From Candidatus Nanogingivalaceae bacterium (lineage in GTDB: Bacteria > Patescibacteriota > Saccharimonadia > Saccharimonadales > Saccharimonadaceae): DNA of 32,000 nt. The number at the start of each line of letters is the position of its first letter. The stretch's first letter is position 1. The notes under the pieces are model-generated. The model made no database searches, was not told the origin of the DNA, and saw nothing but the letters and a program-made list of their open reading frames with translations. A program made the translations under genes and the position numbers. Positions 5,593 through 25,702 of this stretch are shown here, piece by piece. The DNA is taken from the NCBI GenBank assembly GCA_015257795.3, contig CP072208.2:450001-482000 (forward strand), given 5' to 3'.

Positions 5593-8729
<3,137 letters not shown>

Positions 8730-13558: not shown

Positions 13559-15037
13559 TTACAAGCACGTTAAAAGACGGTTCAAATGAACCGTCTCAGA
13601 ATGAAGACAAACATCGTTTTTGATGTTTGTCTTTTTTATATTCTTACCTAATTCTCCTATAATCCAATAATATTGAGATATTTGGGTAAAATTATAGGTC
13701 TTTCCTGTCATCATTTTTACCAATTTTTTGATATTTAGACACGCTAAAGTAAGCCCAACCTTAGCTTCCATTTTGGACTTTCCTTTTTCTCTGGTATAAC
13801 GTAAGTTATGATATTCTTTAGCTGTTCCGAATAACCGTTCTATCGTTTCTTTCCGGTGTTGATACCGTTCTTTCATACCACTTTGATGGCGAATATCTTC
13901 ACAGACTTCTAGGGCATCTTTCCAAATATGACGCACAACAACTTTTTGGTGCTGGCGACTTTCAGTACAAATCGCTAACAAGGGACAGGTCTTACAAATT
14001 TTAGGATTACTTTTATACTCTCGATAACCTTCACGTGTGGTTGTACGATAAGTTAATACATGGTTCTCTGGACAAAGATAACAATCAAAATGCTCGTCAT
14101 AGACAAAGTCTTTTGGACGTAAAAAATCTTTCTTACCTCTTGGTCTAGTGTAAGGGAAAACTGGTGTAATCCCTTTTTCTAGAAGAAACTTGGCAATACT
14201 AGGTGTTTTATAGCCTGAATCCGCAATAATGAATTCAGGTGAGAATGGTTCTAGTTTGACAAAAAGAGCAGAGAAAGCCTGACTATCATGGATGTTTCCT
14301 GCTTCAACCGTATAAGCTAAGGCCCAACCGTGTTTATCACAAGCTACTTGAGCATTGTAAGCGAAGACCTCCTTATGTTCTCCCTTATGAAACCAACCAC
14401 TGTCTGGGTCCGTCGTTGATTGTTTCTTAGGTTTAGCCTCGCTTTTTTCGGCGGGCTTTAAGAGCTTTTTTGCGTGTTTTTTCCTATCTAAATTAATCTC
14501 AATCTCCAGTTGTTCACTCATGAATTTAGCTTTTTGATCAATAACAACAGTTTTGTACTTATGATTATTAGCAGCTGCCTTGATATGGGTCCCATCAATG
14601 AAGATTTCTGAGGGATCAATGAGCCCTGCTTCCAAAACATGATGAAGCACATGACTAAAAATGTGTGCTAACACTTCCTTGTTTTCAAAGCGTCGGCTAT
14701 AGTTCTTACCGTAAGTTGTAAAATGAGGCACCTTATCGTCCAGAGATAAGCCAAGAAACCAACGGTAAGCCGTATTCACCTCAATATCTTTAATGGTTTG
14801 GCGCATAGAACGAATGCCATAAAAACATTGAATCAACGGAATTTTAACTAATAAAACAGGGTCTAGACTAGGGCGACCATTATCCGAGGAATAACTATCT
14901 TCGACAAGATCATAAATAAAAGAGAAATCAATCGTTTCCTCGACTTTTCTTAGAAAATGGTCTTTAGGCACAAGTTCATCAAGCGTATAGAATCCTACTT
15001 GACGTCGATTGTATTCAGGATTTTCTTTGTGAAACAT
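13559..15037 (-). CDS. IS1182-family DDE transposase
   Basis: 492-aa ORF. The N-terminus (YTLDELVPKDHFLRKVEETIDFSFIYDLV...GRPSLDPVLLVKI...YGIRSMRQ) and the C-terminal LFGTAKEYHNLRYTR motif are typical of IS1182/IS5-like transposases. The last codons and the stop run past the terminal IR. Confidence 0.85.
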   Translation of the reverse strand: MFHKENPEYNRRQVGFYTLDELVPKDHFLRKVEETIDFSFIYDLVEDSYSSDNGRPSLDPVLLVKIPLIQCFYGIRSMRQTIKDIEVNTAYRWFLGLSLDDKVPHFTTYGKNYSRRFENKEVLAHIFSHVLHHVLEAGLIDPSEIFIDGTHIKAAANNHKYKTVVIDQKAKFMSEQLEIEINLDRKKHAKKLLKPAEKSEAKPKKQSTTDPDSGWFHKGEHKEVFAYNAQVACDKHGWALAYTVEAGNIHDSQAFSALFVKLEPFSPEFIIADSGYKTPSIAKFLLEKGITPVFPYTRPRGKKDFLRPKDFVYDEHFDCYLCPENHVLTYRTTTREGYREYKSNPKICKTCPLLAICTESRQHQKVVVRHIWKDALEVCEDIRHQSGMKERYQHRKETIERLFGTAKEYHNLRYTREKGKSKMEAKVGLTLACLNIKKLVKMMTGKTYNFTQISQYYWIIGELGKNIKKTNIKNDVCLHSETVHLNRLLTCL

Positions 15038-15160
15038 AGGAACACCTCATCAAATACCTTTTTCTTTTATTATACTCCTTCAAAGCAAGAAAAATCCCCA
15101 GAAGTATAACTTCTGAGGACTTTGTCTTCAATCTGAGACGGTTCAAATGAACCGTCTTTT
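13572..15160 (-). mobile_element. IS1182-family insertion sequence (about 1.59 kb)
   Basis: Terminal inverted repeats of about 40 bp lie at 13572-13611 and 15121-15160. Each has an outer 22-bp palindrome AGACGGTTCAAATGAACCGTCT and an inner CAGA(A/T)TGAAGACAAA. Confidence 0.8.
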
Positions 15161-15172
15161 TCATGTATTCAA

Positions 15173-15310
15173 CTATCGTTCACTAAAGGAGATTTTAAAA
15201 TTATACATTGTACAATTAGGATTTTTACAAACTTTTATAACTTTACCACGTGCAGCATCTTCTGCATAAAACCATAAAACTTCGTTACATTTTGTGCATC
15301 TTTCAGTCAT
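15173..15310 (-). CDS. small zinc-ribbon protein (45 aa)
   Basis: Translates as MTERCTKCNEVLWFYAEDAARGKVIKVCKNPNCTMYNFKISFSER, with a CxxC...CxxxxC pattern. An AGGAGG SD lies 6 nt upstream, so this is a shorter start than in the ORF track. Confidence 0.6.
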   Translation of the reverse strand: MTERCTKCNEVLWFYAEDAARGKVIKVCKNPNCTMYNFKISFSER

Positions 15311-15320
15311 ATTTGTCCTC

Positions 15321-15431
15321 CTATAGTTTATTACCACAGTTACAACACCGTTCTGGTCGGTCGCTTGTTTTTCGCCCGCAGGTTGGGCATTCAATAGTTG
15401 CTGTAAGAATTTTTTTAACTTGTTTAATCAT
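15321..15431 (-). CDS. small zinc-ribbon protein (36 aa)
   Basis: Translates as MIKQVKKILTATIECPTCGRKTSDRPERCCNCGNKL, with a CPTC...CCNC pattern. It is below the ORF-track cutoff. Confidence 0.5.
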   Translation of the reverse strand: MIKQVKKILTATIECPTCGRKTSDRPERCCNCGNKL

Positions 15432-15436
15432 AATGA

Positions 15437-15580
15437 TTACCATCCAGATTTCTTTTGACAAGTTCCATAATTGCAGTTATGGTAAGAAAGATTGTGGTAA
15501 ATAGCTTCTTTACACCAATCACATTTATTACCGCTTAAAGCTCGTTCACAAGCACAATACCATTCATTAGGGTTTCCCAT
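15437..15580 (-). CDS. small Cys-rich protein (47 aa)
   Basis: Translates as MGNPNEWYCACERALSGNKCDWCKEAIYHNLSYHNCNYGTCQKKSGW. An AAGGAGG SD lies 7 nt upstream. It is below the ORF-track cutoff. Confidence 0.55.
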   Translation of the reverse strand: MGNPNEWYCACERALSGNKCDWCKEAIYHNLSYHNCNYGTCQKKSGW

Positions 15581-15597
15581 TACGATTCCTCCTTGTT

Positions 15598-16011
15598 TTA
15601 TATTTTAAGTCCAAAGTTTCTCGCCCATTCTTCCAAAGTTAGCCCACTCTGTGTTGATAAATCTAAAAGAGCCATTTCTATTTTCGCACGCCCCCCTTCG
15701 ACTTCCGTTTTCCATCGTAAAGCTTCCTCTAGGTTTGGTATGACCACTTCTAATCTTCTTACAAATCTTTCGGTATCTTCTTTTTCTCGAAAAAGTTGCT
15801 TGTATTCATCATGATTTGCGGAACCTAGCTTTCCTCCAATTTCATTGAGGTCAGCTAAAAGTTCATAACGGATATTTTGGGCTGTTTCTAGCACTCTTCT
15901 AGCTAGTTCTAATTTTTCGTTGTATTCCTTTGTAGCAGACTCATTTGCTTGTATTTTAAACCATAAAATTCCACCAGTAATCGCAATTACTAATAACATC
16001 AAAAAAGCCAT
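15598..16011 (-). CDS. hypothetical membrane-anchored coiled-coil protein (137 aa)
   Basis: It has an N-terminal TM helix (FLMLLVIAITGGILWF) followed by a charged helical region. An AAGGAG SD is present. It is the first gene of a tightly packed four-gene operon. Confidence 0.65.
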   Translation of the reverse strand: MAFLMLLVIAITGGILWFKIQANESATKEYNEKLELARRVLETAQNIRYELLADLNEIGGKLGSANHDEYKQLFREKEDTERFVRRLEVVIPNLEEALRWKTEVEGGRAKIEMALLDLSTQSGLTLEEWARNFGLKI

Positions 16012-16109
16012 ATTTTCTCCTTAACAAAACCTCTAAGTATTTGTAGCACATTAAAAATCGTATTTATCTTAATACGAAAAACCTCCTTTTTTTATTTTCA
16101 CTCAAAAAT

Positions 16110-16123
16110 CCCTGCTACAATAG
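16110..16123. repeat. 14-bp inverted repeat, left copy (CCCTGCTACAATAG)
   Basis: It is the perfect reverse complement of 16985-16998. The pair brackets the small serine recombinase gene. Confidence 0.9.
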
Positions 16124-16133
16124 GGGTGAGTTT

Positions 16134-16161
16134 GTTTTAGCGAACGGTCGTTTGTTAAAAC
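16134..16161. repeat. 28-bp dyad-symmetric site, left copy (GTTTTAG-CGAACGGTCGTTTG-TTAAAAC)
   Basis: It has the same outer arms as 16249-16276, but the core is in the opposite orientation. Confidence 0.85.
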
Positions 16162-16248
16162 AATCAAAGTTACCAATAAAAATATTTAAAATGCTGATTT
16201 GACAAGGTTTATAGGCTCTGTCAGGTTGGCATTTTTTGATTTTTCATT

Positions 16249-16276
16249 GTTTTAGTTGACGACCGTTTACTAAAAC
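16249..16276. repeat. 28-bp dyad-symmetric site, right copy (GTTTTAG-TTGACGACCGTTTA-CTAAAAC)
   Basis: It is the inverted partner of 16134-16161, separated from it by an 87-bp spacer. Confidence 0.85.
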
Positions 16277-16289
16277 TGTTGATAGGTTA

Positions 16290-16318
16290 AATTTACTATT
16301 TTTCTAAGGAATTGTCAA
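16290..16318 (-). promoter_or_regulatory. promoter reading through the 28-bp site pair toward the 137-aa gene
   Basis: Minus strand TTGACA, 17-nt spacer, TAAATT, directly after the recombinase stop codon. Confidence 0.45.
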
Positions 16319-16322
16319 TCAA

Positions 16323-16967
16323 TTATAGATGATTTTTTCTATTTATTTGAATACCATTGCGCTTTAGTACATTATAAATAGTTGCGGTAGAAATATTCAG
16401 CTGATTGGCTATATTTCGAACAGAATTTTCTTTTTGCTGGTATTGTGCAATAATTTGCTTTTCTTTATCTTTCGCTATTCCTTTATTACCAAGTTTCACA
16501 CCTTTTTCTTTCGCTTTACGCAGTCCGTCTTTAGTACGTTCAGAAATAGCTTGAAGCTCCCATTCTGCAACATAACCCAGCATCAAGCAAAAGAATTTCC
16601 CAGTTAAAGAATCTGTTTCAATATTTTCATGAATTGATTGAAGATGAACACCATGTTTGGTTAAATCTTCCATAATAGCAGAGAGGTGAAACATCTTTCT
16701 GGTAAGTCTATCCAATTTATATACGACAAAATTTGTTTCAACTCCTTGTTTAGCATAATTCTTGGCTAATTTTAACGCTTTGTCAAGTTGTTGTCGCTCC
16801 TGATTTCCACCTGAGTCTTTTTCAATATAAAGCTTGTCACAGAAGTTAAGAGCTTCTGTTTGAACAGATAACCCTAATTCCTGACGATTATCTGTCGAGC
16901 TAACTCGGGCGTAACCTATGGTTATGGTTTCGATGTTTTCTAATTTGTTCTTGTGATGATTTGTCAA
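16323..16967 (-). CDS. small serine recombinase (resolvase/invertase family)
   Basis: 214-aa ORF with the catalytic IGYARVSS motif, DRLTR, and a C-terminal HTH (VRNIANQLNISTATIYNVLKR). It uses a TTG start with an AGGAG SD. Confidence 0.9.
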   Translation of the reverse strand: MTNHHKNKLENIETITIGYARVSSTDNRQELGLSVQTEALNFCDKLYIEKDSGGNQERQQLDKALKLAKNYAKQGVETNFVVYKLDRLTRKMFHLSAIMEDLTKHGVHLQSIHENIETDSLTGKFFCLMLGYVAEWELQAISERTKDGLRKAKEKGVKLGNKGIAKDKEKQIIAQYQQKENSVRNIANQLNISTATIYNVLKRNGIQINRKNHL

Positions 16968-16984
16968 AATTTCTCCTTTCTTTA

Positions 16985-16998
16985 CTATTGTAGCAGGG
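16985..16998. repeat. 14-bp inverted repeat, right copy (CTATTGTAGCAGGG)
   Basis: It is the partner of 16110-16123. It lies between the recombinase SD and a TATAAT -10 hexamer (17001-17006, minus strand). Confidence 0.9.
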
Positions 16999-17025
16999 TG
17001 ATTATATCTTTAGAAGAATGTTGAA

Positions 17026-17057
17026 ATAAAAGAAAAGACCCACAATTTTTGTGAGTC
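17026..17057 (-). terminator. intrinsic terminator after the 76-aa gene
   Basis: Minus strand GACTCACAAAAATTGTGGGTC followed by TTTTCTTTTATTT. Confidence 0.65.
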
Positions 17058-17074
17058 TGAGAAGTTAGCGATTC

Positions 17075-17305
17075 CTACTTAATTAAACTTTTCTCCCAGG
17101 CGATTGCCTTTTCTTGAACTTTGAGCTCATATGAAGTTCTTTCTTCTAATTTCATATTTCTAATTTCTTCCTGAGCTTCTTGTAATAATTCCAGTTGTTT
17201 AATTGCTGGATAAAGGGCAGTTCCGATTATTCTTATTAACTCCTTGTTATCATCTAGTAATTTATTATGAGTTTGAGTAGTATTTAGGGCTTGTGTTTTA
17301 GACAT
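17075..17305 (-). CDS. hypothetical small helical protein (76 aa)
   Basis: The ORF has a GAGGA SD and starts 15 nt after the stop of the upstream gene. The sequence is coiled-coil-like, and no family was recognised. Confidence 0.6.
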   Translation of the reverse strand: MSKTQALNTTQTHNKLLDDNKELIRIIGTALYPAIKQLELLQEAQEEIRNMKLEERTSYELKVQEKAIAWEKSLIK

Positions 17306-17320
17306 GTCTATTCCTCTTTT

Positions 17321-18460
17321 CTAAAAATTATCATAAATAGTTTTCAAGAAATCAAAATCTTCATTAAGTAGATTATTGCTATGTTTAAGTGCTCGCACAC
17401 GAATATCAGTCATATTATTGCGTACAACTCTCATATTGTAACTCAGTTGTTCAATAATTACAATACTTAGTGATTTTATTGTATTTTGCATAAAGTCACT
17501 ATCCAGAAAATCTTTCTCGCCTATAAAAGTATTACTAAAATCATATTCCATGAATCCATAAAACTCCGTTTCTCTATTATTTATATTATCGCTCCCAATT
17601 CTAAAGATAATTTTTCTATGTTTATCAATCTTCAACTTTTTACTCGTTTTAGGGCTTTGAATCTCTTGGAATCGTTCATCGCTAACTTCATAACAGGTTT
17701 TATGGTTTAAGCTACTCTCAGAGAAAAATAATTCGTCATCAACAAACGATGAGTACATCTTATCTCTAGTATCAGAGGAATAAAAGTATAGACGTATATA
17801 AATTTCATCGTCTAATAATTTTTTCATTGCAAATTTAGTATCTTTCAATATATTTTTCAGAAAATTTTTCAAACCCTTGCAGTAAATTTTATCAAAAATA
17901 GTAATCATTTTAGTTGATAAAATCTTTAATAAAAACATTATACCATCTATATTCGAGGAAGCTGTTAGTTCATTGTTATTTTTTAATGCTTCCGTTGTGT
18001 TATATATTTCGTGAATAATAAGATTAGAAAACTCGTATTGATTAAAGGACTTATCCGTGTGCGTCAAATGAATTGTATTATTCTGAGTTAACCTTGAGCT
18101 ATATTGTAACAACTCCTCTAATAGTTTATTCTTTTCTTTTACCTCGTTCCACTTTTTAATAAAAGAAAAGAATTGAGCAATAACTATAGCAGTCATAAAA
18201 ATGATAGTCCATATTGCAAAAAATTCAGATACAGTTGTAGGTTGTTTGTTTGATATTTTTTCAATTTTAAATTCACTTAAATATCTAAAAAGATTCGATA
18301 CCCAGTTTAGAAAATCAGTATTATCGATGATTAAAGTAAATAATCCAGAGATAAAACCTAATAATGTTATTGCTTTGAACGATAAAAAGTAATCTACAAA
18401 ACTAAACCACTGATTTTTATCAGGAAAAAAATCTATAATAGAGTGAATCATTTTTTTCAT
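17321..18460 (-). CDS. hypothetical membrane protein (two N-terminal TM helices plus a cytoplasmic domain of about 270 aa)
   Basis: The ORF track gives 17321-18478 with a TTG start. The ATG at 18460, preceded by GGAGA, is the more likely start. The TM segments are AITLLGFISGLFTLII and FFAIWTIIFMTAIVIAQFFSFI. No family was recognised. Confidence 0.6.
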   Translation of the reverse strand: MKKMIHSIIDFFPDKNQWFSFVDYFLSFKAITLLGFISGLFTLIIDNTDFLNWVSNLFRYLSEFKIEKISNKQPTTVSEFFAIWTIIFMTAIVIAQFFSFIKKWNEVKEKNKLLEELLQYSSRLTQNNTIHLTHTDKSFNQYEFSNLIIHEIYNTTEALKNNNELTASSNIDGIMFLLKILSTKMITIFDKIYCKGLKNFLKNILKDTKFAMKKLLDDEIYIRLYFYSSDTRDKMYSSFVDDELFFSESSLNHKTCYEVSDERFQEIQSPKTSKKLKIDKHRKIIFRIGSDNINNRETEFYGFMEYDFSNTFIGEKDFLDSDFMQNTIKSLSIVIIEQLSYNMRVVRNNMTDIRVRALKHSNNLLNEDFDFLKTIYDNF

Positions 18461-18592
18461 TTTATATCTCCATTTCAAATATAAACCTAATTTCTTATCA
18501 ACTTATTCTATCATAAAAGCGCTACGGACTCATTTGAAAACACTTACATCCAATGATTTTATTGAATTTATATCTGATTTCCGAATATTTTT

Positions 18593-19690
18593 TTACATAA
18601 AATACTTCTGTTCCATCAAACAAAAGAATACCAATTCATTTTTATTCATTTTTTCACCTGAACCCACCGTAAACTCTATTTTATCTTGTTTTGCGAAAGC
18701 TCTATTTTCTAGATAATTTACAATATTTTCTGTTAAGGTTATCATATCTTTCATTTTCGAAGCGGTATAGTCATAGCTGGCTTTTATAGACAAAGCAAAA
18801 CTTTTAATCATAAAAATTTTATTAATAGCTTCTTTTGGTAAAAATCTATCCAAAGCTTTATAAAAATCTGCTTCGGATTGGCAAAATCCAGTAATTAAAG
18901 TTAATTTTGGGCTGTTCTCAAAGTTTTCTTCAATAAACTGTGTAATTCGTTCGTTGATGGTTTCGTTTTGAATTATTAAACCATTCTGGATAATTGGCAT
19001 TTTAGAAATAGAATCTTGAATCAAAACTTTTAAAGTGGGTGAAAAGAGATTTTTATTATCGTTTAACGTTTCAGGCTTATATAAATCAAAATAAAAAATC
19101 TGCTGTTTGCTTTTTAAAGATTCTTCAATAGTTTTTCTATGTGAATATGGCATTAATAAAACCTCATTCTCAAGATATTTAAAAATGTGCTGGTTAATGA
19201 TTTGCGTTTGTCTTAATTCTTCTGAGTTTTCGGAAGGAATATTCGAAAGATTTACCAAAAGAATGAAAAGGCTTGCCAAGTAAAGTTCATCTTCATGGCA
19301 ATGATTAAGTAATTCTATTTTTTCGCTACCAAAAACAACGGTAGCTTTTTGGGTTTGGTTTAAAAGAGTTGATTTGATTTTAAAAACAGCTTGCCTATAA
19401 TCAAAAGTTTCATCACGGTTTAAATCTTTCAAAACATCAGCTATCCTTTGGGATTGAAATCCTAAATCGCTAATTGGTAAAGCTTCTCGATAAAATTCTG
19501 GAACTTCTTCATCACCCGTAAAGAGGCGGTTACTGGAAACACGGTTAATTTCTGGAATAAATGAAATTTTAGGGTTGTTTTCACTCGCTAATCTATTCAA
19601 AATACTATTGACGAAATCTTCTTGGTTTCGTTTTTTCTTTTCAGATTTTTGCAAAATATAACAAAACCATCCTAATCTAAATTCGGTCAC
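18593..19690 (-). CDS. hypothetical protein (365 aa), with a possible degenerate N-terminal HTH
   Basis: It uses a GTG start with an AAGGAGA SD 6 nt upstream. No catalytic motif was recognised. The N-terminal 60 aa loosely follow an XRE-like pattern. Confidence 0.6.
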   Translation of the reverse strand: MTEFRLGWFCYILQKSEKKKRNQEDFVNSILNRLASENNPKISFIPEINRVSSNRLFTGDEEVPEFYREALPISDLGFQSQRIADVLKDLNRDETFDYRQAVFKIKSTLLNQTQKATVVFGSEKIELLNHCHEDELYLASLFILLVNLSNIPSENSEELRQTQIINQHIFKYLENEVLLMPYSHRKTIEESLKSKQQIFYFDLYKPETLNDNKNLFSPTLKVLIQDSISKMPIIQNGLIIQNETINERITQFIEENFENSPKLTLITGFCQSEADFYKALDRFLPKEAINKIFMIKSFALSIKASYDYTASKMKDMITLTENIVNYLENRAFAKQDKIEFTVGSGEKMNKNELVFFCLMEQKYFM

Positions 19691-19821
19691 ACGATTTCTC
19701 CTTGAGATTTCTGAGATTTTTTACCTGATGAATGAGATAAAAATATTCGCTACACTATAACCATAAACAAAGTCGACAATGTTTATAACATAAATTATAT
19801 CAAAATCAAAGGAGAAATCTC

Positions 19822-20082
19822 ATGAATCATATCCAAAAATCAACCCCAAAAGCAGAACTTTCTCAACTTGTTAATCCCTATCAGTTAAAAGTCGCCAAAA
19901 CTCTAAGCGAAGCGATGGCAGATAATCAAGCCTTAGAGCTTCTAGCTAACGATATTTTATATAAAGTGGGCAATTTGGCACTTACTCAGTCTGAAATACT
20001 TAAAAATACTCCTGAAGCTAAAGAGTATACAGATTATATTCTTAAAGCATTCACTTATTATGCTACTGAAAAAATGAAATGA
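19822..20082 (+). CDS. hypothetical protein (86 aa)
   Basis: The ORF has an AAGGAG SD. It is the first gene of the plus-strand transfer-side operon. Confidence 0.55.
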   Translation: MNHIQKSTPKAELSQLVNPYQLKVAKTLSEAMADNQALELLANDILYKVGNLALTQSEILKNTPEAKEYTDYILKAFTYYATEKMK

Positions 20083-20091
20083 GGTAGCTTT

Positions 20092-20295
20092 ATGATGGAT
20101 TACTTTATAGCTTTTATAGTTATCGTTATTATTACTGTATTTCTTTGGGATTGGTTCGAAAAACCAAAACAAGCAAACGAAAAACACTGTAGCGAAGAAG
20201 AAATTGCTCTGGAGGAATTTCTGGAGAAACGGCAAGAAATCAATGAACTTTTCTTGGTTGCTAAAGCAGAAATGCGAAAAATTTCAAGAAAATAA
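20092..20295 (+). CDS. hypothetical single-pass membrane protein (67 aa)
   Basis: It has an N-terminal TM helix (FIAFIVIVIITVFLW) and a charged helix. A GAGG SD is present. Confidence 0.55.
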   Translation: MMDYFIAFIVIVIITVFLWDWFEKPKQANEKHCSEEEIALEEFLEKRQEINELFLVAKAEMRKISRK

Positions 20296-20452
20296 AAGGA
20301 CTGTTTAGACTAGACAAATGGTCAAAATATGTTGAAATATACTACTGTTTCATTGTTTAAATTTCATTCCAATCGCTCTTAAAACTGAAGGTAGCTAAAT
20401 TTAACTTTTCACCAACTTTCTTGTATAAATATAGGCAGAAAGGAGACCAGCC

Positions 20453-20620
20453 ATGAAAAAACTAATAGCATATATTCTTGGATTTGTTGCTTGTGCTTGG
20501 CTTATTAACTGGGCGTTGAAACTAATTCTGGAAGTTTGGTGGTTCTTGGTTTTGATGACGGCGGTCGTTTTCATCGGCTGGCTTACCTTTCGGATTATTA
20601 AAACTAAAGATTGGAGGTAG
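20453..20620 (+). CDS. hypothetical small two-TM membrane protein (55 aa)
   Basis: Translates as MKKLIAYILGFVACAWLINWALKLILEVWWFLVLMTAVVFIGWLTFRIIKTKDWR. An AAAGGAG SD is present. Its stop abuts the next gene's start. It is below the ORF-track cutoff. Confidence 0.55.
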   Translation: MKKLIAYILGFVACAWLINWALKLILEVWWFLVLMTAVVFIGWLTFRIIKTKDWR

Positions 20621-20622
20621 AG

Positions 20623-22842
20623 ATGAAAAGAAAATTTGAAACACTATCTTGGAGTGAACTCAACTGGATGCGCCCGTTTAAAATAGATGATGTGAAATCT
20701 ATGCTGGGTCAACTGGTGGGGTTAACTCGGCGTAAAGCGGTTATTTTTGAAATTCGATTATCTAAGAATCGCGTACGCTATCTATTAGGAACAGAAGAAC
20801 AAGATAAGCGACATATCAGCCAACTAATTCAATCACACCGAGCTATTCAGTTTTCAAGAGCTCCTAAACGCGAAAAACTTTCGGTTGCACGGTTAGTGAA
20901 CATCAAAGAATCTCACTATGCTTTAAAAACGGACTCTGTAGAAAACATGATACGTTCAAGCCTTGCAATTTCAAAAATACTTCAGCCAGATGAAACAGTA
21001 GTTGTTCAGTTGGTCATTGGTGCAGGCTCACCACCTCGGCCGCAGCCAAAAGATTTGCCGAATTTATCCGTTAAATGGTATCAAGTGATTACAAATAATA
21101 TTCCTGAGCTTTCCGAAAACTCCAAAAAGCTGATGAAACAAAAATTAAACCAATCTACTTTTAAGTGTGAAATTCGTCTTGGTGTCCAATCTCGCAGTAT
21201 TTTACGAACAAAAGAATTTTTTGATAGCTTGTTAAGTAGTTTTCGCATGATGGAATCAAATGCAACCATTGAATTAAAACCATTTGCTATCCAAAAACTA
21301 AATCAAGCACAACCTTCTTGGGCTTATCCCTATAGTTTGGGAATTTCAGACCTTGCTTGTTTTCTACTTCTACCAATTGGTGAAGAAAATATTGCAGGCG
21401 TGCCAAATGTTCACCCTAAATTAGTGACTCCGCCTTTGGGCTACAATATTAACCGAAAAAATCAGCGAAGTTTGGCGCAAACGGTTGAAAATCAATCAAG
21501 ACCAATTCAAATTTCAGCACAAGCTGGCAAAAAGCACACCGTTTTTCTCGGCTCAACAGGTTGCGGGAAAACTACTGCCATGAGTCACTTGATTTTATCA
21601 GATATAAAATCTAAACATCATAGTGTAGTTGTGGTGGATGCCAAAGGTCAACTTACTCATGAACTTTTAGAGCGCACACCAACTGAACACGATGAAGATA
21701 CAGTAGTCATTTCACCAACCACCAAACGAGTTGTTGGCATCAATCCTTTTGAACTCACCAAATATGGTATTGAACCCGAAGTTATCGCAGATTATCTACT
21801 GGAGCTATTTAAAGGGCTTTATCCTGAACATTTTGGAATTTACTCGCTGGACATTTTGTCACACAGTTTTCTAACGCTTGCTAGAATTCCAAATACCTCT
21901 TTAGTGATGTTACCAAGTTTGCTCACTAATAAGTCCTTTCGAAATAAACTATTAAGAGAGTTAAAAGACCCAATTGGACTGGAGAGCTTCTGGAACTGGT
22001 TTGAGCTACTCAGTGAAGCCCAACGTCACCAGATATTAAACCCCATTTTGAATAAATTCCGACAGTTTTTGCTTCGTCCGCAACTTCGGGCAATGTTGGG
22101 ACAAACTAATCCAAATTTCAGTCTTGCAGAAATCTTCAAAAGCCGAAAAATCGTATTGATTCCACTAAATAAATCGGTAATCGGTTCAGAATCTGCGAAA
22201 CTCATTGGTAGCCTCATCACTTCAATGCTCTGGATGTTAATTTTGCGCCAGTCGTCAGTTGAGCCAAGCAAACGCCAATCGGTCTTTATCTATATTGATG
22301 AAACACCAAGTTTCCTAGGAATCCCCAATTCTAACTTAGATGAAGCACTTTCACAATCTCGCCAATTTAATGTTGGCTGGAATATCGGCTTCCAGCATCT
22401 TGCACAGATGTCACCTCAGTTAAAAGCTGGTATTGAATCTAATGTTGCGAATAAAATTGTTTTTGGCTTAAATCTTGATGAAGCTCGCGAAATGGCAAAA
22501 TATACTCTGGAGATTGATAAAGAAGATTTTTACAGTTTACCACCATTTTGGGCATATATTCGTACTGAAATTTCACAAAATACTTATCAATGGATTATTG
22601 GTAAAGCCTACCCACCTAAACCAAAAATTAGAGATAGTCGCACGCCATTTTTGAATAGCTTGAGCCGATACGGACAAGATATTTCAGAAATTGAAAGCCA
22701 ATTTGAAAACTACATTTTTGAAAAATCTGCTTCAAAAAATGAAGATTCTAATCAAAAATTAACAGATTTAGGGAGGAAAAAGCGTTCCAATCGCTCTTCG
22801 AATCGTGTTGATGAAGAAAAATCTTCCACCCCTGACAAATAA
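20623..22842 (+). CDS. P-loop DNA-transfer coupling ATPase (TraD/VirD4/TcpA-like, FtsK-HerA superfamily)
   Basis: It has Walker A GSTGCGKT, Walker B VFIYIDETPSF, and a following GFQHLAQM motif. The ATG at 20623, preceded by GGAGG, is preferred over the TTG at 20611. Confidence 0.6.
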   Translation: MKRKFETLSWSELNWMRPFKIDDVKSMLGQLVGLTRRKAVIFEIRLSKNRVRYLLGTEEQDKRHISQLIQSHRAIQFSRAPKREKLSVARLVNIKESHYALKTDSVENMIRSSLAISKILQPDETVVVQLVIGAGSPPRPQPKDLPNLSVKWYQVITNNIPELSENSKKLMKQKLNQSTFKCEIRLGVQSRSILRTKEFFDSLLSSFRMMESNATIELKPFAIQKLNQAQPSWAYPYSLGISDLACFLLLPIGEENIAGVPNVHPKLVTPPLGYNINRKNQRSLAQTVENQSRPIQISAQAGKKHTVFLGSTGCGKTTAMSHLILSDIKSKHHSVVVVDAKGQLTHELLERTPTEHDEDTVVISPTTKRVVGINPFELTKYGIEPEVIADYLLELFKGLYPEHFGIYSLDILSHSFLTLARIPNTSLVMLPSLLTNKSFRNKLLRELKDPIGLESFWNWFELLSEAQRHQILNPILNKFRQFLLRPQLRAMLGQTNPNFSLAEIFKSRKIVLIPLNKSVIGSESAKLIGSLITSMLWMLILRQSSVEPSKRQSVFIYIDETPSFLGIPNSNLDEALSQSRQFNVGWNIGFQHLAQMSPQLKAGIESNVANKIVFGLNLDEAREMAKYTLEIDKEDFYSLPPFWAYIRTEISQNTYQWIIGKAYPPKPKIRDSRTPFLNSLSRYGQDISEIESQFENYIFEKSASKNEDSNQKLTDLGRKKRSNRSSNRVDEEKSSTPDK

Positions 22843-22935
22843 AGGTTTTCAGGATTTTTACTCACACGACTTACTCCGTAACTAAGCACATTTTACAGGA
22901 GCACACCCTTTAAATTTTAATGGAGAACAAAACAG

Positions 22936-23739
22936 ATGAAATGGAATTACAAAATAGATAACAACACGCAAATTCTTTACTTTTTGAGTCAAGCAAGATT
23001 TGCTACCACTAACCAATTAGCCAGACTCTTTTTCGCGGATAGCGCTCGATTTGAGACTACTATTCGCCGCACTAATTTTGCACTGCAAAGCCTGAAGAAA
23101 GCTGGATTGGTTTCACATTTAAAACGACGAGTTGGTGGCGCACGCCGTGGCTCCGCTTCTTATGTTTGGCAAATTACTTTTCAAGGACTAAAATTTCTTA
23201 AAAACCAAGATGAAACAGTTGTTTTGCGTTATAAAAATAAATACGAACCAACCCAGCACCACGTTGAACACACTTTGGGGATTACGGAAATTTTTGTTGA
23301 GACACTGGAGACCGTTCGAGATTCAGAAAAACTGTCGCTTGAAACTTTTTCCTTTGAGCCAAACTCTTGGCGCAGCTACCAAAAACTTTCTGGTGTTGGA
23401 ATGACCCTAAAACCAGATGCTTATTTGGAACTGATTAATCACGATTATGAAGACCATTATTTTCTGGAAATAGACCGAAGCACGGAAAGTCTTGTACGTA
23501 TCCTAAATACTTGTAAGAAATATATTGAATATTATCGGTCAGGTATTGAACAACGACAAAAGGAAGTTTTCCCCTATGTTTTGTGGGTTGTGCCAGACGA
23601 CAAGCGAAAGCTGGCGATTTCGAAAGTGATTCAAAAAGAACTATACAATTTTTGGGAATTATTCACCGTGATTACTTTGGACGAATATTCAGATTATATC
23701 AAAGGAGGTATTTCGAATGAACCAGAAGAATCAAGATAG
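22936..23739 (+). CDS. replication-relaxation (Replic_Relax, PF13814-like) family protein
   Basis: It has an N-terminal wHTH-like region (ILYFLSQARFATTNQLARLFF), a HHVEHTLG motif, and KPDAY...YFLEIDRSTES (PD-ExD/K-like). It is adjacent to the coupling ATPase, as is usual for this family. The assignment is from memory. Confidence 0.6.
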   Translation: MKWNYKIDNNTQILYFLSQARFATTNQLARLFFADSARFETTIRRTNFALQSLKKAGLVSHLKRRVGGARRGSASYVWQITFQGLKFLKNQDETVVLRYKNKYEPTQHHVEHTLGITEIFVETLETVRDSEKLSLETFSFEPNSWRSYQKLSGVGMTLKPDAYLELINHDYEDHYFLEIDRSTESLVRILNTCKKYIEYYRSGIEQRQKEVFPYVLWVVPDDKRKLAISKVIQKELYNFWELFTVITLDEYSDYIKGGISNEPEESR

Positions 23740-23884
23740 AGACTCAAAACAGGCTTCACACACCGCCGATGAAATTTGTCGAATTGGTCGAACGACTTAC
23801 TTAATCCGTCACCGTTTTACTGGAAATCGCAATCTTGAAAATGTCCTAGAAAGGTTGATTTTAAGCGATAAATCACTACTTTAA
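23717..23884 (+). CDS. TnpW-like small protein (55 aa)
   Basis: Translates as MNQKNQDRDSKQASHTADEICRIGRTTYLIRHRFTGNRNLENVLERLILSDKSLL. The IGxTTYxVxxxF...LExxLxRLI pattern recalls TnpW peptides that sit next to large serine recombinases. An AAAGGAGG SD is present, and it overlaps the previous gene's end. Confidence 0.5.
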   Translation: MNQKNQDRDSKQASHTADEICRIGRTTYLIRHRFTGNRNLENVLERLILSDKSLL

Positions 23885-23896
23885 CAGTAGTAAAAA

Positions 23897-23905
23897 TGGT
23901 ATAAT
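23897..23905 (+). promoter_or_regulatory. extended -10 element upstream of the large serine recombinase
   Basis: TGgTATAAT. No good -35 was seen. Confidence 0.35.
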
Positions 23906-23945
23906 AGAGGTATAAGGTGTGTGAACTCCAAAAGGAGAAAAACAC

Positions 23946-25649
23946 ATGAACAGAACTTTGACAATTTCAGATTATAGACAAGTAGATACTTCAAAACTTT
24001 CAGATATTACGGTAGTTTATTGTCGCTTAAGTCAAGACGATGGTCTGGACGGAGACAGTAACTCGATTACCAATCAGAAGAAAATTCTGCTTGATGTAGT
24101 TACAAGAGAAAATCTCCCCAATCCTATTTTGTTTGTTGACGATGGCTTTAGTGGCACAAATTTTGACCGTCCAGCTATTTCGGAAGCACTTAGACTAGTG
24201 GAAAATCGACAAGTTTCAAACTTTATCGTTAAGGATTTGAGCCGTTTAGGGCGGTCTTATATCAAGGTTGGTCAACTAACGGAAATTACTTTTCCGAGCT
24301 TTGATGTTCGCTTTATCGCCTTAAATGATGGCGTAGATTCGAATAAACCTAATGAAACTAATTCAATTTTCTTGCCAATCAAGAGTCTAATGGATGAAAT
24401 GTATGCGGCAGATACCAGCAAGAAGATTCGGGCGGTGGTTCAAGCTAAAGCCAAAGCTGGCGAGCGTGTAACTACTAACCCACCTTACGGCTATCTCAAA
24501 GATTCAAACAACCCTAAAAATTGGATTGTTGACCCAGTTGCCAGCGAAGTTGTGAAACGGATTTTTCAAGAAGCGAAAAGCGGAAAAAGCCTTTCGGAGA
24601 TTGCTAAAGGGTTAGAAAATGACAAAATTTTTAAACCAGACCGCCACCGAATAGAAATCGGTTTGAAGTCTATTTCTTCCAGCCCAAATGTGGAAACTTT
24701 GCCTTATTTTTGGACGCGAGAAACCCTAAGCGCTATCTTAGGGCGTGAAGAGTATCTTGGGCATACTGTCAATCTTCGAACTCGCACGAAATCTTATAAA
24801 GATAAACGTAAAGTAGATAACCCAAAAGAAAATTGGCTGATTTTCAAAAATACTCATGAAGCAATTATCGACCAAGAAACTTTTGATATTGTTCGAAAAA
24901 TCCGAAATCATAAGCGGTCTAATCAACGGTATAAAAATCGGACTGGTCACGAGAATTTGTTTGCGGGATTGGTTTTTTGCGGAACTTGTGGGCGAAAGCA
25001 TTATTTTTGCCCACAAGAGAAAAATGGACTCAACCACGACCATTACAAGTGTTCTGGCTACCGTAAGCCGATTGATGGTTGTGAAAATCCCCACTATATT
25101 CAAAAATCTGCCTTGATTGAGATTGTGAGTGGTAAGCTCCGCCAAACTATTCAGGAAATCCACTTCGACCAAGAAGCCTTTTTGAAAAAGTTAGAACAGC
25201 AAAGCCAAGCTCAATTCAGCAAAAATAATAAACGCCAGCGCCAGCAACTCCAAAAGGATGAACACCGCTCTAAAGATATTGACAGCATCATTCAGAAGCT
25301 TTATGAAGATAATCTACTTGGAAAAATTTCAGATGAACGCTTTGTGAAGCTAAGTCAGAGCTATGAAGAAGAACAGAAACAACTTCAAACTTCCATTTCT
25401 GATTTAACTGAAAAACTCGCCAAACAACAAGAAGATAGCTTGAATATCTCCAAGTTTATGGCGAGAATTTCAAAATATACAGAGCTTCCAAAATTAACCG
25501 TTGAAATAGTGAATGAACTGATTGACAAGATTGTTATTCAGAAACCAACTGGCACGAAACGCAATCGAATTATTCAGGTTGACATTTACTACAATTTCAT
25601 CGGAAAATTAAATAATGAAAAAAGCGAGCCAAACAACTGGGCTCGCTAA
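23946..25649 (+). CDS. large serine recombinase (TnpX/TndX/phage-integrase type)
   Basis: 567-aa ORF with the catalytic VVYCRLSQDDG...SNSITNQK motif, DLSRLGR, a recombinase domain, a Cys-rich zinc ribbon (CGTCGRKHYFC...YKCSGY...C) and a C-terminal coiled coil. Confidence 0.92.
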   Translation: MNRTLTISDYRQVDTSKLSDITVVYCRLSQDDGLDGDSNSITNQKKILLDVVTRENLPNPILFVDDGFSGTNFDRPAISEALRLVENRQVSNFIVKDLSRLGRSYIKVGQLTEITFPSFDVRFIALNDGVDSNKPNETNSIFLPIKSLMDEMYAADTSKKIRAVVQAKAKAGERVTTNPPYGYLKDSNNPKNWIVDPVASEVVKRIFQEAKSGKSLSEIAKGLENDKIFKPDRHRIEIGLKSISSSPNVETLPYFWTRETLSAILGREEYLGHTVNLRTRTKSYKDKRKVDNPKENWLIFKNTHEAIIDQETFDIVRKIRNHKRSNQRYKNRTGHENLFAGLVFCGTCGRKHYFCPQEKNGLNHDHYKCSGYRKPIDGCENPHYIQKSALIEIVSGKLRQTIQEIHFDQEAFLKKLEQQSQAQFSKNNKRQRQQLQKDEHRSKDIDSIIQKLYEDNLLGKISDERFVKLSQSYEEEQKQLQTSISDLTEKLAKQQEDSLNISKFMARISKYTELPKLTVEIVNELIDKIVIQKPTGTKRNRIIQVDIYYNFIGKLNNEKSEPNNWAR

Positions 25650-25677
25650 TATTAACCCATTTAACTAAACTGCTATA

Positions 25678-25702
25678 TGTCAGGTCAGCTGATGCGGGTT
25701 TT
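25678..25702. repeat. candidate right junction (attR-like) of the integrated element
   Basis: TGTCAGG-TCAGCTGAT-GCGGGTTTT. This is the mirror image of 13498-13523. Confidence 0.5.

Follow-up and report, generated by a model that had tools for sequence, protein, structure and literature searches.

A Rare Two-Gene Cargo Pair of Possible Abortive-Infection or Addiction Type in a Streptococcal-Like Mobilizable Element of a Saccharibacteria Chromosome

Introduction

Membrane-anchored abortive-infection (Abi) proteins and two-gene toxin–antitoxin (TA) modules are the described systems closest to the subject of this work, three adjacent minus-strand genes (P1, P2, and P3) in the chromosome of a Candidatus Nanogingivalaceae bacterium. 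The genes are carried by an integrative mobilizable element (IME) of the IME_PF13814 class within a stretch of 32,000 nt (assembly GCA_015257795.3, contig CP072208.2, positions 450,001 to 482,000), referred to here as the window. According to the best-supported reading, P2 and P3 are a cargo module of two genes, rare but conserved, that occupies a defence-type hotspot of this element.

AbiC, AbiP, and AbiZ are lactococcal membrane-anchored Abi proteins that combine one or two transmembrane (TM) helices with a domain of no recognizable family (PMC13064643). P2 resembles them in its carriage by a mobile element of low-GC Gram-positives, its AT richness, and its TM anchor joined to a family-less domain (PMC13064643), and AbiZ itself occupies the same slot in sibling elements. 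However, profile searches revealed no sequence similarity of P2 to these proteins, with no PADLOC or Pfam match at E ≤ 1 beyond chance level. Furthermore, AbiC, AbiP, and AbiZ each consist of a single gene, whereas a small partner accompanies P2 in every locus examined, and the soluble domain of P2, a protein known from sequence alone, is predicted to be cytoplasmic.

Two-gene TA and Abi modules, e.g., type II TA systems and orphan antitoxins, share with P2 and P3 the tight pairing of one large and one small protein encoded side by side on a mobile element, as well as the survival of the small gene on its own, here P3, where the large one has been deleted. The differences lie in the gene order, which is large first and then small, and in P2 itself, a 379-aa membrane protein unlike known toxins; neither P2 nor P3 has homology to TA families, and neutralization by P3 is putative.

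GAF is a classical cyclic-nucleotide-binding fold, and TM effectors with ligand-sensing domains occur in signalling defence systems. The TM effectors of CBASS, Pycsar, and type III CRISPR (CARF-TM, SAVED-TM) are similar to P2 in that N-terminal TM helices are followed by a cytoplasmic domain, which in the predicted model of P2 resembles a small-molecule sensor. The weak PADLOC match of the P2 TM region to CARF_TM (E = 0.018) is at chance level, as is a Sa_NUDIX match (0.045) among the three proteins. In contrast to CBASS, Pycsar, and Thoeris-like systems, no signal generator (CD-NTase, cyclase, or TIR) is encoded in the cassette or the element; the pair comprises only P2, whose GAF assignment is putative, and a 76-aa helical protein.

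The carrier shares its PF13814 relaxase, coupling protein, and serine recombinase with the IME_PF13814 elements of streptococci (Payot/Leblond-Bourget classification), from which it differs by residing in a Saccharibacteria chromosome. The part of PMC12479173 covered here reports 71 such elements in S. suis, some with an orphan methylase as cargo, and contains no description of P2 and P3 as cargo or of the slot as a hotspot.

Architecture of the Variable Slot

Sibling elements were collected through a search anchored on the coupling protein with one genome per species, which gave 40 loci from S. mitis, S. oralis, S. infantis, S. cristatus, S. minor, S. moroccensis, and several Saccharibacteria-labelled bins. 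The coupling-protein loci are mostly 86–96% identical at the protein level, falling to 75–80% in S. minor and S. moroccensis. Gene maps reveal a conserved backbone on one side, consisting of the serine recombinase, relaxase, coupling protein, and three small genes, and on the divergent side a first gene, a variable segment, and then a small resolvase with a gene of about 135 aa. The small resolvase adjoins the slot in all sibling elements with that side recovered. Across 23 sibling elements, P1 occupied the first position in 12, and an unrelated 348-aa protein (B348) in the other 11.

Behind P1, the slot contains a 106–114-aa basic-tailed protein (five loci), a 241-aa ATPase with a 131-aa protein (four loci, plus four S. 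suis loci), a CPBP/Rce1-like protein with a membrane protein and an AbiJ-like protein (one locus, L020), P2 and P3 (one locus, S. oralis BCC10), or an operon strand without a recognized open reading frame (ORF; one locus, S. minor). Behind B348, it contains a 436-aa polytopic membrane protein; AbiZ; a DUF218 protein with a membrane protein, C5 methylase, NgoPII endonuclease, and AbiZ; a pair of 139 and 202 aa; a 152-aa gene read in the opposite direction; an operon strand devoid of ORFs (two loci); or, in S. suis and metagenome elements only, P2 and P3.

Several of these occupants belong to known anti-phage families. The slot AbiZ is recognized by DUF6161 at 2.6e-52 and by the PADLOC AbiZ model at 5e-43, and the same tools leave P1, P2, and P3 unmatched by this profile. 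The AbiJ-like protein matches AbiJ_NTD3 (4.6e-53) and PDC-S32 (1.8e-42), the type II restriction–modification (R-M) pair matches RE_NgoPII (5.5e-99) and DNA_methylase (3e-68), and for the ATPase, matches to the mad3, PtuA, AriA, GajA, and Old models range from 7e-20 to 1e-12.

The cargo is sharply bounded. On the resolvase side, the homology of elements with other cargo to the window ends at 16997–17067, around the resolvase start, the terminator, and the P3 stop, and 17068 is the outermost limit of the exchangeable segment. On the other side, homology resumes at 18584–18663 in P1-type elements (the P1 stop lies at 18593) and only at about 19793 in B348-type elements. These breakpoints, together with the slot contents, indicate that P1 and the P2–P3 cassette are two independently exchangeable segments; this modular architecture and the conservation of the pair are held with high confidence.

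The nature of the other occupants also bears on whether P2 and P3 might be a cargo that benefits the host outside defence, for example through bacteriocin or envelope-stress immunity. Such a role would accord with the L020 slot, in which the CPBP/Rce1-like intramembrane protease belongs to a family often tied to bacteriocin self-immunity, and with the several other slot occupants that are uncharacterised membrane proteins. However, the CPBP gene of L020 is accompanied by an AbiJ-like protein, bacteriocin genes are not found nearby, and the retention of orphan P3 genes (see below) would be left unexplained; a host benefit of this kind is considered improbable.

Two observations concern the slot independently of P2 and P3. 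The pair of a 241–247-aa ABC-type ATPase and a 131-aa protein without matches occupies the slot of eight elements (L001:9163-10491; L010:6594-7964; L015, L025, L037) and is a candidate for a second uncharacterised defence pair. Additionally, the occupants without a family include the 436-aa polytopic and a 414-aa membrane protein, the pair of 139 and 202 aa, and the 106–114-aa proteins, which end in a KRKRRKK tail (L021:6603-7913, L032:6172-7416, L041:6850-7874, L009:7406-7726).

P1 and the Question of a Three-Gene Unit

The three genes had been regarded in an earlier note, made from the sequence alone, as a unit of their own. A three-component system in which all proteins are needed together would be in keeping with their shared direction, the lack of a terminator-like site between them, and the one strong promoter-like site upstream of P1; moreover, the complete trio is found at eight chromosomal sites in oral metagenomes at 95–99.99% nucleotide identity. 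This recurrence, however, represents the spread of one element variant and not independent co-selection. P1 is followed by P2 and P3 in just one of 12 species-representative P1-type elements, while in S. suis and metagenome elements the pair follows the unrelated 348-aa protein, and it also occurs inverted relative to the first gene. The co-occurrence data thus largely refute a three-component system, which is regarded as very improbable. In the neighbourhood survey suggested in the earlier note, P1 did not as a rule co-occur with the pair, P2 and P3 stayed together, and the slot held anti-phage genes in the siblings. By the refuting condition that the earlier note had set, the first of these results counts against a three-gene cassette.

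Within the leftward accessory operon of the element, P1 is a gene independent of the pair. Either P1 or the unrelated B348 occupies the place next to the divergent promoter, and five differing cargo types follow P1. Its family comprises 61 clusters at 48–95% identity, all from streptococci or oral and pig metagenomes, and the family alignment displays a nearly invariant N-terminal region of about 72 residues followed by a variable C-terminal two-thirds. Owing to its fixed place by the divergent promoter, its near-invariant N-terminus, and its independence from the cargo, P1 may possibly act in the regulation or maintenance of the element.

No significant match to P1 was obtained in Pfam, PADLOC, NCBIfam, PHROGs, or PDB sequences, a GINS match in the last (0.0084) being of no use. 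A degenerate XRE-like N-terminus had been suspected; however, no helix-turn-helix family (HTH_3 or HTH_XRE) appears among the Pfam matches of 23 family members at E ≤ 5, and the suggestion is left without support from hidden Markov models (HMMs). The AlphaFold2 model of P1, which derives from a shallow alignment, is poor (predicted local distance difference test, pLDDT, 54.5), with low confidence for residues 1–60. Its Foldseek matches to the FtsZ C-terminal domain, IspF, and ThiL (E ~1e-3, template-modelling score ~0.2) were rejected as a generic resemblance among alpha/beta sandwiches with no functional meaning. Homology between P1 and B348 was likewise rejected (BLASTP E = 0.012 over 95 residues; hhalign probability 0.3%), and the motif N[KR]LFTG is the sole remaining likeness between them, which may be kept as a lead.

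P2 and P3 as a Conserved Pair

P2 and P3 are neighbours in the window, in S. oralis, in S. suis, and at eight or more metagenome sites, and they occur behind P1 or behind the 348-aa protein. In every P2-family locus examined, a gene of 76–87 aa lies within 22 nt downstream of P2 or overlaps it. The three distant relatives of P2 are each followed by a small gene as well (84, 87, and 80 aa), which overlaps or starts within 14 nt; the 84-aa partner of the relative P0206 is a P3 homologue (38% identity, E = 1e-13). All three distant pairs reside in the same element family, adjoining the resolvase and/or a B348-like gene. They are co-directional with the neighbouring gene in L082 and inverted between the resolvase and the B348-like gene in L074/75 and L078-81. 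Since the distant pairs can be inverted relative to their neighbours, the pair probably has a promoter of its own, for which the weak site in the P1–P2 gap (Table 1) is the candidate.

The two proteins also vary in concert. P2 of 379 or 375 aa is accompanied by a P3 of 76 aa, and P2 of 378 aa, which has a different C-terminal tail, by a P3 of 80 aa that is only 44–50% identical to the 76-aa type. The N-terminal TM and loop module of P2 assorts independently of this class split. The pattern would fit a contact between P3 and P2 near the C-terminus of the latter.

Searches with P3 gave no significant match in Pfam, PADLOC, NCBIfam, or PHROGs. A blastn search against plasmids gave no match. The inverted distant pairs raised the idea that the small resolvase may invert the cassette; it lacks support, since the inverted repeats that would be expected on either side of the cassette were not convincingly present in the window. 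In L086-L088, the 378-aa P2 and 80-aa P3 lead directly into left-end sequence of the element, the resolvase and the 137-aa gene having been lost; these are decayed or rearranged elements.

Rarity and Predicted Structure of P2

The P2 family is tiny. A word-indexed search of 5.8 billion proteins returned 17 clusters at 70–100% identity, and an exhaustive HMM search of 1.84 billion representatives returned 13 proteins. Beyond the family itself and fragments, the only distant full-length relatives among them are P0206, P0212, and P0213, at 26–31% identity (E-values of 2e-37, 4e-18, and 5e-9). Motifs preserved across 26–34% identity are KKWNE, Y-S--TQ---IH-[ST]H, KGFKRFLK, F[VI]DD, SDNI-N, YG[FY]--[FY]D, and E-[LIM]SY; all are located in the cytoplasmic part, with KKWNE directly after the second TM helix.

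Hydrophobic segments at residues ~25–45 and ~75–100, followed by a K-rich stretch, fit a two-TM, N-in topology that leaves the C-terminal domain in the cytoplasm, as had been proposed from the sequence. Equally, the absence of a recognizable family motif in the three proteins was borne out by the profile searches: P2 has no significant match in Pfam, PADLOC, NCBIfam, PHROGs, or PDB sequences, and Pfam scans of all members of both family alignments, that of P1 and that of P2, revealed no consistent family. The PADLOC models yielded nothing beyond chance level at E ≤ 1 for P2 or its distant relatives in a release not confirmed to include AbiC and AbiP models, and the partners of the distant relatives are also unmatched there.

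The AlphaFold2 model of P2 (pLDDT 46.6) displays a long helical linker, a five-stranded alpha/beta domain at residues ~220–305, and C-terminal helices. GAF domains account for 14 of the 17 top Foldseek matches in PDB, all of them non-significant (best E = 0.07), including PDE5/6, cyanobacteriochromes, phytochromes, and a Geobacter GAF/HD protein, with the NifA GAF domain at rank 48. A GAF-like nature of the alpha/beta domain is therefore taken only as a lead. The structural check recommended in the earlier note was thus carried out for P1 and P2, though the models are poor and no confident structural match emerged.

The layout of P2 and the variability of its loop raise a further alternative, in which the pair is a sensing or regulatory module of the element, with a GAF-like membrane sensor and an adaptor controlling excision or transfer, or a determinant of entry or surface exclusion. 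The predicted succession of TM helices, helical linker, and alpha/beta domain is indeed sensor-like, and the external loop between the TM helices exists in distinct allelic forms, as is often the case with exclusion determinants. However, the pair is wholly missing from elements whose backbone is nearly identical, which makes it dispensable for the element life cycle; P2 has no output or DNA-binding domain; and the element encodes no mating pore against which exclusion would be directed. Either form of this alternative is judged improbable, and the regulatory sensor module also envisaged in the earlier note, being unlikely for P2 and P3, is conceivable for P1 only.

Proposed Function of the Pair

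For P2 and P3, an abortive-infection, defence, or addiction role, which is among the possibilities that had been put forward for the cassette, is the best-supported function, because sibling elements carry AbiZ, an AbiJ-like protein, an R-M pair, and a PtuA/AriA-like ATPase pair at the corresponding position. The chances that the pair is such a module appear about even.

A specific mechanism of a membrane effector with a restraining partner can be proposed tentatively, and its details are more doubtful than secure. P2 would be anchored in the membrane by its two N-terminal helices, and its cytoplasmic part, a helical linker with a possibly GAF-like alpha/beta domain, might sense a trigger. Once triggered, P2 would act on the membrane or on cell viability, while the small helical P3 is speculated to bind, restrain, or otherwise regulate P2 in an antitoxin-like manner.

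Several points weigh against these proposals. A defence role is a prediction from sequence comparison and models, and the profile libraries searched contain no known defence, toxin, or antitoxin family homologous to the pair. Position in the slot is a weak guide, given that it also holds genes of a non-defence or uncharacterised type, namely DUF218, small basic proteins, and polytopic membrane proteins. The AlphaFold2 runs relied on family alignments that were shallow, hence the poor models. The likeness of the P2 model to GAF domains reaches template-modelling scores of only ~0.2–0.4 (up to 0.40 to the target), which with the best E-value above is not significant, and no Pfam GAF match was found in P2 or seven relatives at E ≤ 5. 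Regarding the pair itself, two of the three distant partners are too divergent for detectable similarity to P3, and the matched allele classes of P2 and P3 could reflect the mere linkage of neighbouring DNA. Finally, the selection estimates for orphan P3 genes, given below, come from short reading frames.

Orphan P3 Genes in Saccharibacteria Chromosomes

Relatives of P3 are far more numerous than those of P2, amounting to 91 clusters, some of which are present on more than 100 contigs. Orphan relatives at 59–85% identity occur singly, and their chromosomal surroundings are conserved, in the order HisRS, SpoU, CYTH, FtsE, FtsX, CHAP, the P3-like gene, CtpB, a response regulator, and L27, on contigs of up to 666 kb, of which one member is named Ca. 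Nanogingivalaceae. The syntenic relics in L057-L073 (e.g., L057:5900-6360) correspond to window 16944-17305 and lie between the CHAP/PcsB-like and CtpB-like genes. Each preserves about 90 nt of the 3' end of P2, an intact P3 (79–82 aa), the terminator, the resolvase promoter with its Shine–Dalgarno (SD) sequence, and the first resolvase codons, beyond which the DNA alignment shows unrelated sequence. For the orphan P3 reading frames of L057, L070, and L073, dS is 0.2–0.9 and dN/dS 0.25–0.47, based on ~75 codons, which suggests that P3 is maintained without P2.

If P2 is costly and P3 protective, P2 would be expected to disappear and P3 to persist, as is the case here. Such retention, typical of antitoxins, also speaks for a purely addictive, TA-like role, with P2 as a toxin and P3 as its antidote, which would stabilize the element after integration or excision and have no anti-phage function. 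The tight gene pair (a gap of 15–22 nt or an overlap) and the dependence of a small carrier element on stable maintenance point in the same direction. However, most sibling elements do without the pair and have Abi or R-M genes instead, and P2, a membrane-anchored protein of 379 aa, does not resemble known type II toxins. The addiction-only reading is unlikely, and addiction and anti-phage roles are not mutually exclusive.

A broader proposal combines the Abi or addiction reading with the distribution of the pair. P2 and P3 might constitute an undescribed two-component membrane Abi/addiction system, unrelated to any known defence family, that a small mobilizable element moves between oral streptococci (Bacillota) and Saccharibacteria (Patescibacteria), with orphan P3 as a domesticated antidote; a fixed orphan copy would then protect the reduced-genome Saccharibacteria epibionts against incoming copies of the toxin. 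This proposal is speculative and rather unlikely in its full form.

Coordinates, Expression Signals, and Composition

The coordinates of the genes, signals, and segments are collected in Table 1. The three co-directional minus-strand genes are present as the earlier note had described them, including the GTG start with its AAGGAGA and the gaps of 114 and 15 nt; the P1–P2 gap extends to 132 nt when measured to the ATG at 18460, which is preferred as the P2 start since the N-termini of homologues align on it. The strong promoter-like site lies in the divergent intergenic region common to P1 and the gene o86, and probably acts as a promoter.

Table 1. Coordinates of the cassette, its signals, and the surrounding element in the window.
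Feature	Position	Strand	Basis or description
P1, 365 aa, soluble	18593..19690	-	ORF; GTG start, AAGGAGA SD six bases upstream
P2, 379 aa, membrane-anchored	17321..18460	-	ATG at 18460 with GGAG upstream; 385 aa if TTG at 18478
P3, 76 aa, helical, partner of P2	17075..17305	-	ORF
Promoter-like site upstream of P1	19794..19823	-	-35 ATGAGA, 18 nt spacer, TG-extended -10 TATAAT; consensus scan 10/12
Weak promoter-like site in P1–P2 gap	18510..18538	-	TTCAAA, 17 nt spacer, TATGAT; consensus scan 9/12
Intrinsic-terminator-like hairpin and T-run after P3	17036..17058	-	Terminator scan
Exchangeable cargo segment, P2–P3 cassette	17068..18598	-	Stretch without homology to other-cargo siblings
Small serine recombinase, resolvase/invertase type, 214 aa	16323..16967	-	Pfam Resolvase 3e-32 and HTH; backbone gene bounding variable slot
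Integrative mobilizable element, IME_PF13814 type	15136..25690	.	~10.5 kb; limits are the start and stop of nucleotide homology to 40+ siblings in other chromosomal contexts

A terminator after the last gene had also been noted, and its hairpin and T-run are indeed present. It is, however, common to elements with other cargo and to the chromosomal P3 relics; the homology of other-cargo elements to the window reaches ~17043-17067, hairpin included, and the terminator is therefore shared and not special to the P2–P3 insert.

The region was correctly singled out as the most AT-rich coding stretch, as it contains the GC minimum of the window (0.264–0.288 in 1-kb windows). The GC content is 0.297 for P1, 0.267 for P2, and 0.316 for P3, compared with 0.38 for the transfer genes of the element; the cargo is thus more AT-rich than the backbone, which is likewise true of the Abi cargos of sibling elements. 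Additionally, a 37-nt direct repeat with 76% identity links window 18446-18482 to 18552-18588. The latter copy, located directly after the P1 stop codon, is a degenerate version of the ribosome-binding and start region of P2, and the repeat may be a footprint of cassette insertion.

The Carrier Element and Its Host Chromosome

The carrier is an element of the IME_PF13814 class. It encodes, in order, small CxxC ORFs, o137, the small serine resolvase, P3, P2, P1, the divergent o86, o67, o55, the coupling protein, the PF13814 relaxase, and a large serine recombinase. Profile searches with the element proteins gave Replic_Relax at 1.2e-38 for the relaxase and TrwB_AAD_bind at 7e-14 for the coupling protein, and the large serine recombinase comprises Resolvase, Recombinase, and Zn_ribbon_recom domains. 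Thus, the relaxase, the coupling protein, and the integrase of this class are present, and copies of the element are integrated in differing chromosomal contexts. The element has no mating-pore set of its own in profile scans of its proteins. The earlier placement of the genes in the accessory part of an integrative element is confirmed by these components and by the sibling maps.

Saccharibacteria genes flank the element on both sides (enolase, LysRS, alpha-glucan phosphorylase, RimK, and a DUF1704 protein), and exact copies of these flanking proteins carry Nanogingivalaceae or Saccharibacteria names. Over the 12.2 kb compared, the window is 100% identical to the Ca. Nanogingivalaceae sequence CP076102.2. 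At 90–95% identity, the element backbone matches elements of mitis-group streptococci (S. mitis, S. oralis, S. infantis, and S. cristatus). For one metagenome copy in a different site, the identity to the window element is 99.99%. A streptococcal-like element in a Saccharibacteria chromosome points to either a recent cross-phylum transfer or a chimeric assembly.

Further features of the surrounding DNA were observed. A palindrome of ~143 bp at window 16134-16276, between the small resolvase and the 137-aa gene, is kept in sibling elements, where it matches in both orientations, and as single-stranded DNA it folds with z = -4.3 relative to shuffles; it is a candidate origin of transfer or resolvase site. 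The left end of the element (window 15173-15580) contains three overlapping small ORFs (73, 46, and 47 aa), each with paired CxxC motifs, and the DNA at 15136-15580 is conserved in many siblings. A gene for an IS1182-family transposase (492 aa; window 13559-15158) abuts this end, with hairpins at 15091-15123 and 15135-15158, and a related insertion sequence adjoins the opposite end of the sibling element in S. infantis (L013). Outside the element, the 23S rRNA match at window 5593-8714 covers 3122 nt against a model of 2925 positions, which implies ~200 nt of inserted sequence.

Implications

If P2 and P3 are a defence or addiction module, they would represent a new family of unusual build, in which a membrane anchor is joined to a putative ligand-sensing domain and accompanied by a very small partner, and the family is absent from every profile library searched. 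The orphan P3 genes constitute a natural experiment on which half of the pair can stand alone. The slot in which the pair resides is a compact, sharply bounded cargo hotspot of widespread streptococcal mobilizable elements, with at least nine cargo types across ~30 elements, several of which are uncharacterised membrane proteins, and could be mined for further systems. Lastly, the link to Saccharibacteria suggests that mobilizable elements carry genes between ultra-small epibionts and oral Firmicutes.

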